Source: a virus (lineage: Duplodnaviria; Heunggongvirae; Uroviricota; Caudoviricetes). Taken from it: a stretch of 45,439 nt of DNA. The stretch is from IMG/VR virus record IMGVR_UViG_2541047931_000012. One strand, given 5' to 3'. The position numbers and the translations under genes were made by a program. The notes beneath the pieces were generated by a model. The model was not told the DNA's origin. It ran no database searches and saw nothing but the letters and a program-made list of their open reading frames with translations. Shown here piece after piece: positions 1 through 29,484 of this stretch (position 1 is the stretch's first letter; each line of letters starts with the position of its first letter).

Positions 1-2370
1 GACGCTTCGCACGTAAAACCAGAAATCCGTCCCCGGCTTAATCCGGCTCCCCTGGACAGTCCACTGACTGCCGGTCCCCAGATAACGGGCAGATTTTTCC
101 ACCTGTGCCGTGTTCGTGATGCGTTTTTCTGAGAACCAGAATTCAAACTGTACCGTCGGGTCATACACCGCAAGACGCGGGACCGCCGTTATCTGAAAAT
201 ACCCCGGCGTCAGTTCAATGGTGGCGGGTTTTGCTGGCGCGTTAATCCGGAAGGTGGTGGTGGCCGGTTCGCCCTGCTGGCCATAACTGTTAATCGCCCT
301 GACCGTCAGGGTGTATTCCCCCAGTGGCAGGCCACTGAAACGGTGCTCCGTATCGGCAGTGATGGCGGTGGTCAGCAGTCTGGCATCCGTTCCCTTACCA
401 CTGGTCAGGCGCAGACTGAAGCGCACGCCCTTCACCACCCGCGGCGTGTCCCATTTAGCCTGCGCCAGATACTGGCCGTCAGCTGCGCTCACCTCCACCG
501 TCAGGTGCTGTACTGCCGGTGGGATAACGCTGTTCAGGGAGCCTGACTGCGGCTCAAAGCGGGCCCCGTTATCCACGATGGCTTCTTTTTCCGGTACGTG
601 CTGCACCGCCGTGATGGCAAAGGTGCCGTCCGTGTTTTCCCGGATGGAGACACAGCGGAACAGGCGACGGCGCAGTGACGGCAGGGAGAGTCCCCACACC
701 CCGTATGTCTCCACACCATCAGGCAGGGTACTGACCTGTATCCGGTCCGGCGCGGGGTGTTCGGTGATGTCCACACTCACCGGCTTACCACTGCCGTTAA
801 TCAGGTTCACCGTGGCGGCACCGGTCTCCGGAAGTGTCACTTCACGGTCCAGCGTCAGGGTGCGGGTGGCAGCATCAATGGACAGGACACGTCCGCCGGT
901 CAGGGTCCCGGCATAGTCGTTATCACAGATTTCAATGATGTCACCGGGTGTGTGCCGCAGCCCCTGAGACCCGAGCGTGAAATCCACCGTCTGCGTTTCC
1001 AGCAGTTCGGTCTTTATCACCCACAGTCCGGCACGGTGGGCCTGACCGCGGCTGGTACAGCCGAACGCGTCCATCTTCAGCAGGTTGCGTCCGTAGCGCA
1101 GTATGGCTTCCGGGTCTTCCACCAGTTCCGTGGAGGTCTGCCAGCCGTTCTGCGGGTCGGTGTAATTCACCTCCACCGCCGTGTGCCGGTCCTTCAGGGC
1201 ACTGAAGCTGTAGCGGAATCCCACGCCGTTATCATCCACCACCACATCGCTGTTGGTGTACGGCCACACCACATCCGACGGGCGGTCCTGAACGAACGTC
1301 AGCGTCTGACCGTTCCATACCGGCATACAGCGCATCGCAGAGCAGAAATCACTGAGAACGTCCCACGCCTTACGCTGTTGTGCCAGGTACGCATTAAAGG
1401 TCATCCGCGGCTCGGTCCCCCCGAAACCATCCGGGACCGTCTGGTCGCAGTACTGCCCGATGGCATACAGCGCCCACTTGTCCACATCCGCCGCCCCCAG
1501 ACGTTTTCCCATGCCGTAGCGCGGGTGAGTCAGCATGTCCCACAGACACCAGGCCGGATTGTTGCTGTATGCCGGTTTCAGACTGCCGTCCCAGATACCA
1601 CTGTACGTGCGTTTTTCCGGGTCATAGTTTGACGGCACCTGAATGATGCGACCGCGGATATGGTAGTTCACCGTCATCTGCTGGCCGCCGAACTGCTCCG
1701 CATCCACCTGCAGCCCCACAATGGCCGTGTTCGGGTAGCACTGTTTCACATCGATGATTTCAGTGTACGATGACCACAGCGTCCTGTTCTGCAACTGGTC
1801 CGTGGTGCTGTCCGCCGTCTCCCGGACCATCCGGATGTTAAAGGGCCGGGGCGGCAGATTATCCAGAATCACCGAGGCCAGGAACTGCGAGGTGGTCTTG
1901 CCGTTAATGGTGACATCCTTTTCCGTCACCCAGCGGCCATTACGCTGTAACTGAATCAGAATCCGGACAGAGGAAGGATTACGGTCGCCCTTTGACGTGG
2001 TCTGCACCAGTGACTGCACCCCGAAGGTAACCCGCAGGCGGTCAATGTTCGCGGACGTAATGGTGCGCGTCACCGGTTTTGCCTTCGTCACTTCCACGCC
2101 CAGTCCGGTTTCAGCTCCGGAGGACTCAAAGCCTTCCGGTGGTGTCTGCTCCTGCTCCCCGGCACGCCAGACCGCAGTCACACCGTGTATCACGGGATTA
2201 CCGTCCGTGTCCGTCAGCGGGGTTTTGTTCACCAGAATACTCTGCAGTCCCTTCACCGGACCTTCTATCGGTCCCTCACCAATCGCATCAATCACACTCA
2301 TCATCTGCGTGGATTTGAGATTATCCTTCGCCTCACGAGGCGTGTGTGCCTTACCGCCACCTTTTCCCAT
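1..2370 (-). CDS. J: Tail tip / host-specificity protein J, N-terminal ~790 codons; the 3' end lies beyond the window start
   Basis: Minus-strand translation from the ATG at 2368-2370 reads [38 protein letters not shown]..., which matches the lambda gpJ N-terminus from memory. The frame stays open to position 1 and the gene follows I as in lambda. Confidence 0.85.
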
Positions 2371-2476
2371 ACAGCCTTCCCCTGAATAAATTAACCGCCA
2401 CTTGCCATTCCGTACAGAAGTCGGATATCCTTCGCCCGAAAAGCATGAAACACATTTCTGCCATGCTAAAGAGAAA

Positions 2477-2509
2477 CCCCGGTATCAGCAGATACCGGGG
2501 TTTTCTTTC
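2477..2509. terminator. Perfect 10-bp stem / 4-nt loop hairpin (ccccggtatc-agca-gataccgggg) with T-rich tracts on both sides; candidate bidirectional rho-independent terminator in the I-J gap
   Basis: Inverted repeat at 2477-2500 followed by ttttctttc on the plus strand; the minus strand reads tttctcttt after the stem. Confidence 0.55.
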
Positions 2510-2575
2510 ATGCCCACCGATAATCCTGTTGGTTAAAACCGGTAATGGCATAAAAATTCTGAATATCTTCACATT

Positions 2576-2603
2576 TTCACAAACTGACTGTGGCGCGTAT
2601 AAT
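2576..2603 (+). promoter_or_regulatory. Candidate sigma70 promoter (TTCACA - 16 nt - TATAAT) reading rightward in the I-J intergenic insert
   Basis: -35-like ttcaca at 2576-2581 and a perfect -10 tataat at 2598-2603, read directly from the sequence. Confidence 0.4.
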
Positions 2604-2668
2604 TTCTCTGCGTTAATTTTTTTGTCGTGATATAAGAATAATTCCTTACACTTAATCTTCGTAACTCT

Positions 2669-2709
2669 CCCGCAGTTCCTGTCCGCGATCACTGCGGGAT
2701 TTTTTTATT
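2669..2709 (+). terminator. Rho-independent terminator (cccgcagt...actgcggg followed by a T-run) about 70-100 nt downstream of the candidate promoter
   Basis: 8-bp inverted repeat at 2669-2676 and 2691-2698, followed by attttttta. Confidence 0.55.
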
Positions 2710-2713
2710 CTTT

Positions 2714-3394
2714 TTACCCCTGCCGCCCGATAACCACGACCTTTCCGCCCCCGCCTTCATCACGGGTGCTGATGTCCTGGGATATACGGCGGGAGCCAAC
2801 CAGCATTTCCCCGTAAGGCACCGGCATCGGGTTCCCCTGGGCAATCATGTTATCCAGCGAGGAAAAGTACGTGTTCTGTCTGCCGTTATCCGTTGCGCGG
2901 TAATCCGGTGTTTTTGCCTTCGGGGCCAGCATCTGGGCCACTCCGCCCAGTATCATGCTGGCACCCAGTGAAAACAGCATCGTGGTGGCAGAAAAACCAC
3001 CGGCACTCAGGGCTGTACCCCATAACGCCATCGAGCCTCCGGCCGTGAAGAAAGAGCCCACGATGGCTGCCGCCCCCAGCACAATCTGCAGTCCACCCTT
3101 TCCGGCCCCGGCCAGTCGCGGCACAATGTGGATGACCGTTCCCTCACCCAGCTGTTCGTGAAGACGGGCATACACCGCCTCCGGTGCCGTGTCATCACCG
3201 GCAATACGTATCTGGTACCAGCCTTCGTTCATCTGACGGCGAAAGCCCGGCATCTGCATCGACAGGGCGCGAATGGCTTCCGCTGCCGTGTTCACATACA
3301 GGCTGAGGCGGCGGCCAAATCGTTGCAAATCCCCGTGAAGGCAGATGCGTGCCAGTGGCGGTGACGCCAGACAGAATGCGTTCGTCGTTGCCAT
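2714..3394 (-). CDS. I: Tail assembly protein I
   Basis: 226-aa ORF in the lambda I position (lambda I is ~223 aa) with the same ~100-nt overlap with K as in lambda. Confidence 0.8.
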   Translation of the reverse strand: MATTNAFCLASPPLARICLHGDLQRFGRRLSLYVNTAAEAIRALSMQMPGFRRQMNEGWYQIRIAGDDTAPEAVYARLHEQLGEGTVIHIVPRLAGAGKGGLQIVLGAAAIVGSFFTAGGSMALWGTALSAGGFSATTMLFSLGASMILGGVAQMLAPKAKTPDYRATDNGRQNTYFSSLDNMIAQGNPMPVPYGEMLVGSRRISQDISTRDEGGGGKVVVIGRQG

Positions 3395-4035
3395 TTTTCG
3401 GAATACCTCTCCCGTTTACTCAGTTGTTCAGGCAGATGGTGAAGCAGCTCACCGTTGCCGCAGTAAATGGCGGCATGGTTCGGTACCGAAGCACCAAAGC
3501 AGCACAGCAGAATATCGCCCGCCTGTGCAGAGGACAGGGGCACCCGGTAAAAGCCGGTGACCGCCATATTGTCCAGGTAAAGGTTCTGACCGTTGCGCCA
3601 CCAGTCATCCTCGCGATGAAAATCCGGCATTTCAGTCCCCGCCAGATGGTATGCATCCCGGAACAGGGTGTAACAGTCCGTCACCCCGTGCTCAAAGCGC
3701 CGTCCCGTCAGGTGCGGCACGCAGCGGAATTTGTGAATGTCACCCCGGCAGACCAGCCACCAGGGCAGTGCGCTTTTTATCTGCAGCCGCCGGTCAGCCT
3801 CGCTCAGCCAGGGCAGCCCACCGGGATGACTGTGGACCAGTGCCACAATCTCCCCCTGCATCTCTGCCCGCAGCCAGTCTTCCGGTGCAATACGAAAATA
3901 CGCCTCCGGCTCTGCAGAGATATTCACACAAGGGATATACCGCTCCCCCTCCGGCGTTCTCACCACTAAGCCGCACGACTCCGCAGGCACACACCGCCGG
4001 GCATGCGCCAGAATCGCTGATTCTGTCTGTGTCAT
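3292..4035 (-). CDS. K: Tail assembly protein K
   Basis: ORF starts MTQTESAILAHARRC... and contains the HSHPGG motif, matching lambda gpK from memory; sits between L and I. Confidence 0.85.
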   Translation of the reverse strand: MTQTESAILAHARRCVPAESCGLVVRTPEGERYIPCVNISAEPEAYFRIAPEDWLRAEMQGEIVALVHSHPGGLPWLSEADRRLQIKSALPWWLVCRGDIHKFRCVPHLTGRRFEHGVTDCYTLFRDAYHLAGTEMPDFHREDDWWRNGQNLYLDNMAVTGFYRVPLSSAQAGDILLCCFGASVPNHAAIYCGNGELLHHLPEQLSKRERYSEKWQRRTHSVWRHRHWHASAFTGICNDLAAASACM

Positions 4036-4738: not shown

Positions 4739-5067
4739 CAGTTCACCACCTGCTTAAACTCCGCGCTGAACTCAACGCGCAACATCCCGACCCGCGCAGA
4801 CCACCCGGCACAGGTCACCTTTATCTGCCGGTATGCATAGGGTGGCTTCCACAAAAATGCCTTCCAGCCACCGTGCTCTGCCAGGAACGCTTCCAGATGC
4901 CGGGCCTCCTCCCGGGTCACGGAAAGCGTCACCCTGTATGTTTTCAGGTCAGCATTCAGCCCTGCCGCCATACGCTGTGAGTACCCGTCACCAAAACGCA
5001 CTTCACGCACCGATGGCTGCGAGTTCACCTCCATATCCGGCTTCACTTTCCAGCGAAAGGTTTTCAT
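4738..5067 (-). CDS. M: Minor tail protein M
   Basis: 109-aa ORF, same length and position as lambda M. Confidence 0.8.
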   Translation of the reverse strand: MKTFRWKVKPDMEVNSQPSVREVRFGDGYSQRMAAGLNADLKTYRVTLSVTREEARHLEAFLAEHGGWKAFLWKPPYAYRQIKVTCAGWSARVGMLRVEFSAEFKQVVN

Positions 5068-13989: not shown

Positions 13990-15571
13990 GTGGTGTTGTC
14001 TCCTCTTCCGGCCTGCGACTCTCCGCTATCTGCTGCTGATACGCCTGCGCTATCCACACCGGACGTGAGAGTCCGGCTTTTTCCCGCTCTGCAGATTCCC
14101 TGACCTGCTGGCGGAAAATGTCCTGATAATCCTCGCCCATCAGCGCCAGCTCTTTCTCATACGTGCTCAGTCCGGCCTCAATGCGCATCACTGATTCCTG
14201 AACCTCCTTGAGCCCGTCAATGGCCATTCTTCCGGCTCCAATCCACTCAGCCCGTGACCAGGCTGATCGCGCCTGATAAAAATCAAAACGTGCCCGTGGC
14301 GGACGAATAATCCCCCGAAGAAGTGCCTCTTCCAGCCAGCAGGAAAACATCTGCGTGGCCAGTCGGGACGCAATAAATTTTCGCCGCCCCATAAAATAGC
14401 GCCACGACTCATTGGCGGATGCGCGGGCACTTGAATAACTGACCTTCGAGTAATCACGGGACAACTGTTCGTAGGAAACGCCAAGACCGGCGGCGATATA
14501 CCGCAGCAGCGCCTGTTCAAGCGCCGAAAATCCATTGTCTGAATCCTGCGCGGTCTGAAGTTTCAGATCATCACCGGGGAAAAGGTGCGGAATTTTGACA
14601 CCGCCCAGCGTCACGCTATTCGTGTCATACCAGGTGGAGAACTTATCCAGAATATTAATAAGCGGATTATCCTTCTGCCCCTGCGGCGCACCGGCGATAT
14701 ATTCAAAGGCCTTTTCGGTATCAAGGTCACTTTCAATCGTCGCTGCATACATCGCCTTCACTATGGCCGACTGAAGCTGTGTTGCCTGCAGGGAGTCCAG
14801 CATCTTCAGCCGTTCCATAACGCTGTAAAACTGATTGGCTCCACGGGTCTGCCCGTCCTCCACCGGCTCGAAAATATGCAGCATGGCCGGACGCCCGGTG
14901 GGAAGTTCACGCGGGATCCGTTCCCATCGTCCACTCCCGGAGCGAGGAAAATCATCCTCACAGATATGGTACGCAACGGCACGGCCATATCGATCAACCT
15001 CCACACCGGCCCGCAGAAAACGGTTCCCGATACCGTGTCCTGGCGTGTCCACCCGTTTCGGACTCACGGCTTTAAAACGCGTACGAAACAGTTGCGTGCT
15101 CTCCGTATCCCAGACCGGCTGCACAAAGATTTCGCCGTTAAACGCATGAACGCCCACACCTTCACGGATAAATTCCGTAAACGTGCGTTTCCCTTCCACG
15201 TCGATCTCACCAAACATCCCTTCTGCGTATTCTGACCAGGCCGCCTCCACCTCATCGACAAAACTTTTTGCCGCGGTCTCCCGCATCCCCAGCCAGCGCC
15301 AGTTCGGACGGTAGCTGATCAGAAACATATGCCCGACAATGTGATCCTTATGCAGGGCCACCGCATTGGCCGCTATTCCGTTATTGCGCACCAGATCATC
15401 TGCACGGGCATTCCCCAGACGCAACGCGGGCAGCAGGGCCGCATCGGCACTCTGCGAGGGTGGCAACCACTCTGCCATTTGCCCGCCAAATCCTGCACCG
15501 CCACCGTTGTAGCTGAGGCTCTCCCGAAGCGGAACGCCGTTCACATCAATCAGGACAGGCGTTCGTTTCAT
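13979..15571 (-). CDS. B: Portal protein B
   Basis: 530-aa ORF (lambda B is 533 aa) between W and C. Confidence 0.9.
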   Translation of the reverse strand: MKRTPVLIDVNGVPLRESLSYNGGGAGFGGQMAEWLPPSQSADAALLPALRLGNARADDLVRNNGIAANAVALHKDHIVGHMFLISYRPNWRWLGMRETAAKSFVDEVEAAWSEYAEGMFGEIDVEGKRTFTEFIREGVGVHAFNGEIFVQPVWDTESTQLFRTRFKAVSPKRVDTPGHGIGNRFLRAGVEVDRYGRAVAYHICEDDFPRSGSGRWERIPRELPTGRPAMLHIFEPVEDGQTRGANQFYSVMERLKMLDSLQATQLQSAIVKAMYAATIESDLDTEKAFEYIAGAPQGQKDNPLINILDKFSTWYDTNSVTLGGVKIPHLFPGDDLKLQTAQDSDNGFSALEQALLRYIAAGLGVSYEQLSRDYSKVSYSSARASANESWRYFMGRRKFIASRLATQMFSCWLEEALLRGIIRPPRARFDFYQARSAWSRAEWIGAGRMAIDGLKEVQESVMRIEAGLSTYEKELALMGEDYQDIFRQQVRESAEREKAGLSRPVWIAQAYQQQIAESRRPEEETTPRET

Positions 15572-29221: not shown

Positions 29222-29377
29222 AGTTTCACCTCATCAGGTTAACCATCACCACCAACGACGCCAATCGACTGGTGGTGAACTGTGCAAGGTTGGCGTAACC
29301 GGCTACTCAAATCCGGCGCTCCCGAAGAAGCCCTCACACAGCCCACCATAATTTGGGCGTAGCCGTGCTTAGCGCAT

Positions 29378-29398
29378 AAAAAAACCGCTTAACGCGGT
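29378..29398 (-). terminator. Rho-independent terminator upstream of the Bro-N gene
   Basis: Minus strand reads accgcgttaagcggt + ttttttt. Confidence 0.6.
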
Positions 29399-29484
29399 AT
29401 GCGTTGAGTAGTATTCCGGGACGCCAATCCCGTGTGCCGATTTTGCGGCAACGCACAGAATATATCCCCAGATAAATCATGTCG

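Follow-up and report, generated by a model that had tools for sequence, protein, structure and literature searches.

The I–J intergenic region

The window, by which we mean the whole 45,439-nt stretch of viral DNA analysed here (IMG/VR record IMGVR_UViG_2541047931_000012), carries its late operon on the minus strand, with the tail genes I and J separated by an intergenic stretch of 343 nt (2371–2713) and the J ORF truncated by the left end of the window. In phage lambda (NC_001416) the same gap measures 60 bp (15445–15504), which confirms that, as the initial annotation had proposed, extra DNA is present here between I and J. The region is 100% identical to a locus of E. coli SK1144 over positions 2340–2740, and the genes annotated there are gpJ, tail assembly protein, C40 peptidase (K), L, M and tape measure. 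The following features can be delineated, those of the small RNA (sRNA) being predictions:

2368–2370, minus strand: start codon of tail gene J (host-specificity protein), reading CAT on the plus strand; annotated as gpJ in the identical SK1144 locus
2371–2549: 'long-type' J-proximal segment, unrelated to the ~75-bp segment of most related phages
2468–2509: bidirectional terminator-like hairpin, stem 2477–2486/2491–2500, loop AGCA, with a pyrimidine/T run on both strands
2555–2576, plus strand: CRP-like dyad AAT-TCTGA-ATATCT-TCACA-TTT (core 2558–2573), directly upstream of the −35 box; candidate regulator site
2576–2603, plus strand: putative sigma-70 promoter of the sRNA, −35 TTCACA (2576–2581), 16-nt spacer, −10 TATAAT (2598–2603)
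2610–2706, plus strand: predicted PasB-family sRNA, a primary transcript of ~97 nt from G2610; homologous to NC_011601 1466343–1466261
2634–2660, plus strand: unstructured sRNA body, candidate Hfq distal-face site and seed, delimited by conservation in 55 unique modules
2634–2642, plus strand: (AAN)3, AAGAAUAAU, conserved motif in the body
2643–2647, plus strand: UCCUU, conserved motif in the body
2652–2660, plus strand: UUAAUCUUC, conserved motif in the body
2669–2706, plus strand only: Rho-independent terminator, CCCGCAG (2669–2675), 16-nt loop, CTGCGGG (2692–2698), A, U7 (2700–2706)
2714–2716, minus strand: stop codon of tail assembly gene I (ORF 2714–3394; RefSeq start at 3295)

Promoter and upstream dyad

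The TTCACA-16-TATAAT element noted earlier on the plus strand at 2576–2603 stands up to closer analysis: it agrees with the sigma-70 consensus at 11 of 12 positions and is the best of three promoter-like matches in 1800–3400, where shuffled sequences give 0.9 on average. In the −10 hexamer, all of 55 unique variants of the locus have A at position 2 and more than 90% have T at position 6; the promoter spacer is strongly divergent.

The dyad upstream of the −35 box agrees with TGTGA-N6-TCACA at 9 of 10 bases. A bare match to the CRP core is not significant, as three occur in the window and 1.5 are expected. Both half-sites are nevertheless constant in all promoter-bearing variants, the N6 between them reading ATATCT, AATTCT, AACTCT, ATTTCT or GTTTAT, and the distance from the dyad to the −10 box is constant at 24 nt even though the intervening sequence diverges. 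Moreover, the homology between otherwise unrelated upstream segments starts at the dyad box. Canonical CRP sites have their centre at −41.5 in class II promoters and at −61.5, −71.5 and so on in class I promoters. The centre of the dyad, 32.5 nt upstream of the −10 box and at about −44.5 from the predicted start, is a non-canonical position for CRP. For PasB, the homologous sRNA of enteropathogenic E. coli (EPEC) introduced below, levels are higher in overnight LB than in DMEM, and the CRP-repressed Spot 42 behaves in the opposite way in the same data set (PMC8550237). This pattern fits activation by CRP but is not specific, growth phase or oxygen explaining it equally well. That the dyad may be a CRP site is a new lead, offered as a hypothesis only and with a chance of roughly one in three; Cra or an UP element are alternatives. 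CRP, cAMP, glucose and any promoter go unmentioned in the recent study of PasB by Zhu, Shabalina and Storz (2026; bioRxiv 10.64898/2026.05.13.724894), and Pearl Mizrahi et al. (2021; PMC8550237) mention CRP only for PinT and in a cited reference. A divergent minus-strand promoter that would use the dyad together with the J-proximal terminator was found neither by eye nor in the promoter scan.

Predicted transcript and terminator

Starting from G2610, a 5′ end predicted from the −10 box, the transcript would be 97 nt long; if the published 5′ end of PasB is transferred instead, its length is 84 nt, since the stretch equivalent to the published 83-nt RNA is 2623–2706. RNA-seq coverage had put the published 5′ end ~14 nt further downstream than the start that the −10 box predicts, so that either the RNA is processed or the start prediction is off. 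At the other end, a plus-strand terminator had been proposed at 2669–2709, and we do find a 7-bp GC-rich stem followed by U7 at 2669–2706. The stem is invariant across variants, the loop varying in sequence and in length (10–16 nt). In the RNAalifold consensus fold the terminator is the sole shared structure and the body is unpaired; the terminator stem offers no covariation because it never changes.

Between the constant −10 box and the terminator stem the sequence diverges to ~70% identity. The parts conserved in the 55 unique modules are the key −10 bases, GCGUUA at the predicted start, the U run, (AAN)3–4, UCC, UUAAUCUUC, and the terminator stem with its U tail; the variable parts are the 5′ third, a few bases on either side of UUAAUCUUC, and the terminator loop. 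Of these modules, 44 were gathered from viral contigs with a pattern that held ATCTTC, CCCGCAG and CTGCGGGATTTTT, the constancy of which is there by construction, and 11 were collected by BLAST; in the latter, the only independent set, ATCTTC and the terminator stem are invariant as well.

In Hfq-dependent base-pairing sRNAs the body is unstructured, and a U run, A-A-N repeats and a U tail are present. These features expected of an Hfq client recur in the predicted sRNA, which has a U run, its repeats being (AAN)3 and its tail U7. An ARN motif for Hfq clients was described by Tree et al. (2014; PMC4104026). The base-pairing seed is probably made up of UCCUU and UUAAUCUUC, both conserved and single-stranded, and Zhu et al. 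2026 (bioRxiv 10.64898/2026.05.13.724894) placed the seed of PasB just upstream of the terminator. The seed complement GAAGATTAA is not enriched in the window, with 10 occurrences found and 10 expected.

A covariance search of positions 1800–3300 against Rfam 15 at permissive thresholds gave nothing at 2371–2713, the best hit being PK-repZ, which scored 18 bits where 44 are required (E = 0.41). The PasB type locus of E2348/69, searched in the same way, likewise returned only noise, from which it follows that Rfam 15 holds no PasB model. A covariance model built from diverse alleles would fill this gap.

Homology to PasB of EPEC E2348/69

PasB (pathogenicity-associated sRNA B) was described in EPEC O127:H6 E2348/69, where five prophage sRNAs were found by RIL-seq (Pearl Mizrahi et al. 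2021, PMC8550237). Table S6 of that study lists it as an 83-nt RNA of prophage PP6 on the minus strand (NC_011601, 1466343–1466261), with AATCCCGCAGTGATCGCGGAGCT as Northern probe, and both its size and its Hfq dependence were confirmed by Northern blot (PMC8550237). Deletion of hfq changed the pasB level by log2 −6.8 in DMEM and −2.4 in overnight LB, i.e. a 5- to 100-fold drop, and pasB took part in 37 RIL-seq interactions, in which it was nearly always the second RNA of the chimera, as is the case for sRNAs (PMC8550237). Its expression was higher under the non-activating condition, with 1820 chimeric fragments as compared to 258 under the activating one, where its partners were bfpB, bfpI, ftsZ, galE, ler, perB, rplX and a pasA-adjacent RNA (PMC8550237).

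In E2348/69, PasB is located between the genes for the tail assembly protein (ending at 1466255) and gpJ (starting at 1466496), on the opposite strand, and its end is 6 nt from the I stop codon. The window aligns to this gap from ~2550 through the terminator into I, with 88% identity in the promoter and leader and 73% in the RNA; the last 25 nt are identical, 25 nt also being the length of the longest shared word. When reverse-complemented, the Northern probe for PasB matches 2679–2701 with three mismatches, where zero matches would be expected by chance. The two loci thus have in common the I–J slot, the orientation on the opposite strand, and a terminator only a few nucleotides from the I stop codon, as well as the upstream dyad, the −35 and −10 boxes, the terminator stem with its U7 tail, and the motifs AUCUUC and UCCUU; the predicted size agrees too if the published 5′ end is transferred. 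They differ at 27% of the aligned RNA positions, above all in the divergent 5′ third, in the base that follows UCCUU, and in the terminator loop, which is 5 nt longer in the window; furthermore, the J-proximal part of the window, i.e. the long-type segment, is unrelated to its E2348/69 counterpart and ~100 bp longer.

Duplex predictions for three alleles against the RIL-seq regions of ftsZ and ler performed no better than those for shuffled sRNAs (z between −1 and +1). The E2348/69 PasB can pair UCCUUCAC and AUCUUC with GUGAAGGA and GAAGAU of ler, a pairing of which the window allele loses part.

Probable identity with EcOnc22–24 of EHEC Sakai

A second set of published RNAs maps to the same slot. 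EcOnc22, from prophage Sp15 of EHEC O157:H7 Sakai, was detected as an Hfq-CRAC peak, runs at ~85 nt on Northern blots and loses stability when Hfq is absent (Tree et al. 2014, PMC4104026, Table S2); EcOnc23 (Sp14) and EcOnc24 (Sp11) are its homologues, and all are on the plus strand (PMC4104026). On NC_002695.2 the three peaks all fall inside I–J gaps, with the tail genes on the minus strand. The coordinates of Tree et al. are offset relative to NC_002695.2 by +135 to +139 nt, as calibrated on AsxR, which they place 282 bp after stx2B (PMC4104026). Once corrected, the EcOnc22–24 peaks fall in the PasB homologue and not on the J-proximal hairpin, an assignment that depends on an offset measured at another locus. 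Mapping the peaks onto NC_002695.2 uncorrected leads to the wrong feature.

The Sakai copies share with the window the position in the I–J gap, the dyad, the −10 box, (AAN)n, UUAAUCUUC and the terminator stem; in contrast to the window module they are of a type D allele, ~71% identical to it, with weaker −35 and −10 boxes. We infer that EcOnc22–24 and PasB are one locus, a link made in neither PMC4104026 nor PMC8550237, which joins two published names (EcOnc22–24 from 2014, PasB from 2021 and 2026). A full-text literature search with the terminator sequence as a literal string returned no paper, nor did a search for an sRNA together with tail assembly protein I and host specificity protein J. 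Two other sets of RNAs considered as further Sakai copies were rejected: EcOnc10/11 map beside the lysis genes, and EcOnc36 maps within a large ORF of Sp5.

Distribution and allelic variation

The promoter-to-terminator module (2550–2713, plus strand) is present in 1857 of 5426 complete E. coli genomes, at 4947 places in all and with up to nine copies per genome, and in 107 phage records, mostly from Stx-converting phages. The promoter/terminator pair is therefore conserved in related prophages, a point that the initial annotation had raised. Among the matches listed, nearly all E. coli records carry no annotated feature at the module. Within complete E. coli records, a 401-nt region is found at ≥99% identity in 632 and at 90–95% in 909. 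In IMG/VR contigs there are 44 unique full modules, and the exact sequence of the window is the commonest (17/108).

At least five allele classes can be distinguished, each of which combines freely with the long or the short J-proximal segment; the long segment is found 25 times with type A and 15 times with type B, and both types are also found with the short segment. Because the long segment occurs with different sRNA alleles, the locus is a mosaic generated by recombination. The I–J slot is held in all variants, including those of Sakai Sp11, Sp14 and Sp15, of E2348/69 and of the checked phages with an annotated J. In Stx2a phage Stx2_EH1846 (LC567840.1, locus 380–619) and in 12 IMG/VR contigs, J is replaced by sodC (Cu/Zn superoxide dismutase), and the sRNA body and terminator are kept with the dyad and promoter lost; such a copy is either a relic or transcribed from elsewhere.

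Outside E. coli, a pattern scan covering one GTDB genome per species found real copies only in E. albertii, most matches to the seed-plus-terminator pattern being chance matches in unrelated phyla. GTDB contigs of 460–3442 bp filed under Parendozoicomonas, Streptomyces and Clostridiales carry PasB modules or terminators of the E. coli type, which are most likely due to contamination or mis-binning.

In their survey, Zhu et al. 2026 (bioRxiv 10.64898/2026.05.13.724894) report 1158 PasB matches and 24 phages, with variants that differ by 'only a few nucleotides'. Their PasB-2, which differs at position 27, matches the ASU11/PPompW allele in our alignment. Since their Escherichia search used blastn with 28-nt words and >75% query coverage (bioRxiv 10.64898/2026.05.13.724894), and since the longest word that the window allele shares with PasB is 25 nt, this allele was probably missed and left uncounted. 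The difference between 107 phage records here and the 24 reported suggests that long-word BLAST surveys undercount the family.

The J-proximal hairpin

The long-type segment that separates the sRNA unit from J is itself widespread, with ≥99% identity in 1442 E. coli records. The perfect 10-bp hairpin with flanking T tracts that had been noted at 2477–2509 is present as described, its stem occupying 2477–2500: the arms CCCCGGTATC (2477–2486) and GATACCGGGG (2491–2500) pair without mismatch over 10 bp, or over 13 bp when extended through AAA/TTT, and the sequences on their two flanks are AAAGAGAAA and TTTTCTTTC. The predicted folding energy is −27 kcal/mol on either strand (z −6.2 on the plus and −4.8 on the minus strand), and none of 200 shuffled sequences folds as well. 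A simple terminator scan did not list this hairpin.

The lambda I–J gap contains the hairpin ACCGCC-TGCG-GGCGGT followed by TTTTGTCATTT (RNA UUUUGUCAUUU) on the late strand, just before the J ribosome-binding site. In short-type variants the late strand reads CAGGCAYCC-CGGA-GGRTGCCTG and then TTGTTTTT, with a paired C:G to T:A change between two variant groups. A late-strand hairpin followed by a U run is in fact found before J in nearly every variant, conserved in position and shape and unrelated in sequence, and the J-proximal hairpin of the window corresponds to the lambda hairpin as its positional counterpart. The simplest history would be that the sRNA unit was inserted between the I stop codon and this older hairpin. 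As for its role, the hairpin could be a terminator that is read through by Q-modified polymerase, or an RNA stability element.

Interpretation of the locus

Taken together, positions 2555–2709 of the plus strand very probably constitute a self-contained sRNA gene of the PasB/EcOnc22–24 family, directed against the late operon. The initial annotation, which predicted a plus-strand, antisense, non-coding prophage sRNA of ~70–100 nt, gains support from the homologous E2348/69 locus, which makes an 83-nt Hfq-dependent RNA; its sRNA reading was right, and the kind of gene is already published. Judged by its sequence, the window copy is a common, divergent allele of the published family and not a new kind of element. 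We infer the expression of the window allele from its homologues, and the seed residues and mRNA targets of its sRNA are putative as well. The 343-bp stretch, unannotated so far and nearly unchanged in at least 632 complete E. coli genomes, many of them from human isolates, thereby obtains names and a likely role.

By its layout the sRNA gene is a moron-like insertion, apparently placed between the I stop codon and the old hairpin before J. Morons are usually defined as carrying their own promoter and terminator. As in the morons of Juhala et al. (2000), in so far as these are relayed by Tree et al. (2014), an extra transcription unit that is absent from lambda lies between two conserved late genes; the difference is that the cargo here would be a non-coding RNA and not a protein gene.

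We envisage that host RNA polymerase, acting in the lysogen, would initiate near G2610 from the TTCACA-16-TATAAT promoter, and that transcription would end at the CCCGCAG/CTGCGGG-U7 terminator, giving an RNA of 84–97 nt. This RNA is predicted to have no stable fold save the terminator, and its U run, (AAN)3 and U tail would serve as the usual contact points for Hfq, with UCCUU and UUAAUCUUC acting as base-pairing seed. By analogy with the homologues, the sRNA would bind Hfq and pair in trans with mRNAs of the host and of mobile elements.

Another possibility is that the sRNA acts mainly in cis, lowering or uncoupling J expression through transcriptional interference or duplex-directed cleavage; the phage affected could be its own prophage or a related one, co-resident or incoming. 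The convergent orientation, the complete complementarity to the I–J stretch of the late mRNA, the exact position kept in all variants, and the up to nine copies per genome with partly shared sequence would all agree with such a function. However, the complementary stretch ends ~240 nt upstream of the J start codon and cannot mask the J ribosome-binding site, and the homologue that has been studied behaves as Hfq sRNAs acting in trans typically do, its 37 partners lying elsewhere in the genome; we regard a mainly cis-acting RNA as unlikely. It has also been suggested, in the initial annotation, that the region insulates J transcriptionally; in the strict form of this explanation the gap is mainly an insulator, whose hairpins keep lysogen transcription out of J (or I), the promoter-like element being incidental. 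The J-proximal hairpin is a fitting candidate for this, all the more as a hairpin and U run of unrelated sequence precede J in lambda, in short-gap phages and in the window. Yet the explanation covers only 2468–2509 and does not fit the promoter/terminator pair: it leaves unexplained why the −10 bases are invariant and why the dyad keeps its distance from the −10 box, as well as the conserved single-stranded motifs and the RNA that is made from homologous loci. Insulation as the main function therefore seems improbable to us, although it may describe the hairpin before J.

The gap could finally code for a small late protein on the minus strand. ORFs do exist there, one of 113 aa (2351–2692) and an internal version of 66 aa, and two phage records annotate hypothetical proteins at this place, of 66 aa (ASU11) and 32 aa (PhiR12_1). 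On the other hand, a Pfam search with the three longest ORFs of the gap gave no match, the ORFs pass through two strong hairpins, RefSeq has no annotation in the gap, and the alleles differ in variant alignments by indels of 1, 2 and 5 nt, which are not multiples of three, so that no reading frame is conserved. The earlier statement that the gap holds no convincing ORF is in agreement with this, and a protein-coding gap is to be considered extremely improbable.

Returning to the sRNA gene of the PasB/EcOnc22–24 family, a more far-reaching reading, which we put forward as speculative and doubtful, would see in the I–J slot an exchangeable sRNA cassette. A fixed frame, consisting of the regulator dyad, the −10 box, the GCGUUA 5′ end, the Hfq motifs and the terminator, would be combined with a 5′ and seed-flanking region that is swapped by recombination, thus placing different target sets under one nutrient-responsive, possibly cAMP-CRP-driven switch. 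The RNAs could in addition act antisense on the late I–J transcript of rival lambdoid phages. If this were true, the published surveys would have counted only part of a family that roughly one E. coli genome in three carries. In any case, the allelic series and the conserved dyad provide handles on the signals and targets of these sRNAs.

Other small RNAs in the window

Elsewhere in the window, Rfam matches were obtained for AsxR, STnc100, C4, IsrK and three tRNAs, which brings the small-RNA genes to at least five when the PasB-like gene is counted. Like the latter, AgvB and AsxR (Rfam RF02702 and RF02703) are short RNAs bound by Hfq and encoded in lambdoid prophages; their 3′ part is conserved, their 5′ part varies, and they run antisense to a late transcript; they differ in being smaller (51–60 nt), in having another sequence and in residing at the moron site downstream of PR′. 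The AsxR-family anti-sRNA of the window is found at 25195–25247 on the plus strand (63 bits, exactly at the gathering score), convergent with a copy of STnc100 at 25251–25459 on the minus strand (132 bits). The pair lies directly downstream of tRNA-Met, tRNA-Arg(tcg) and tRNA-Arg(tct) (25535–25784, minus strand), at the site where Stx phages carry stx. The distance between STnc100 and the last tRNA is only ~75 nt, which leaves no room for a toxin gene. The arrangement resembles the two convergent sRNAs that Tree et al. (2014, PMC4104026) described at the PR′ moron site, here in a prophage lacking stx. The C4 antisense RNA (29268–29353, 72 bits) and the Hfq-binding RNA IsrK (29378–29450, 61 bits) are situated side by side, both on the minus strand.
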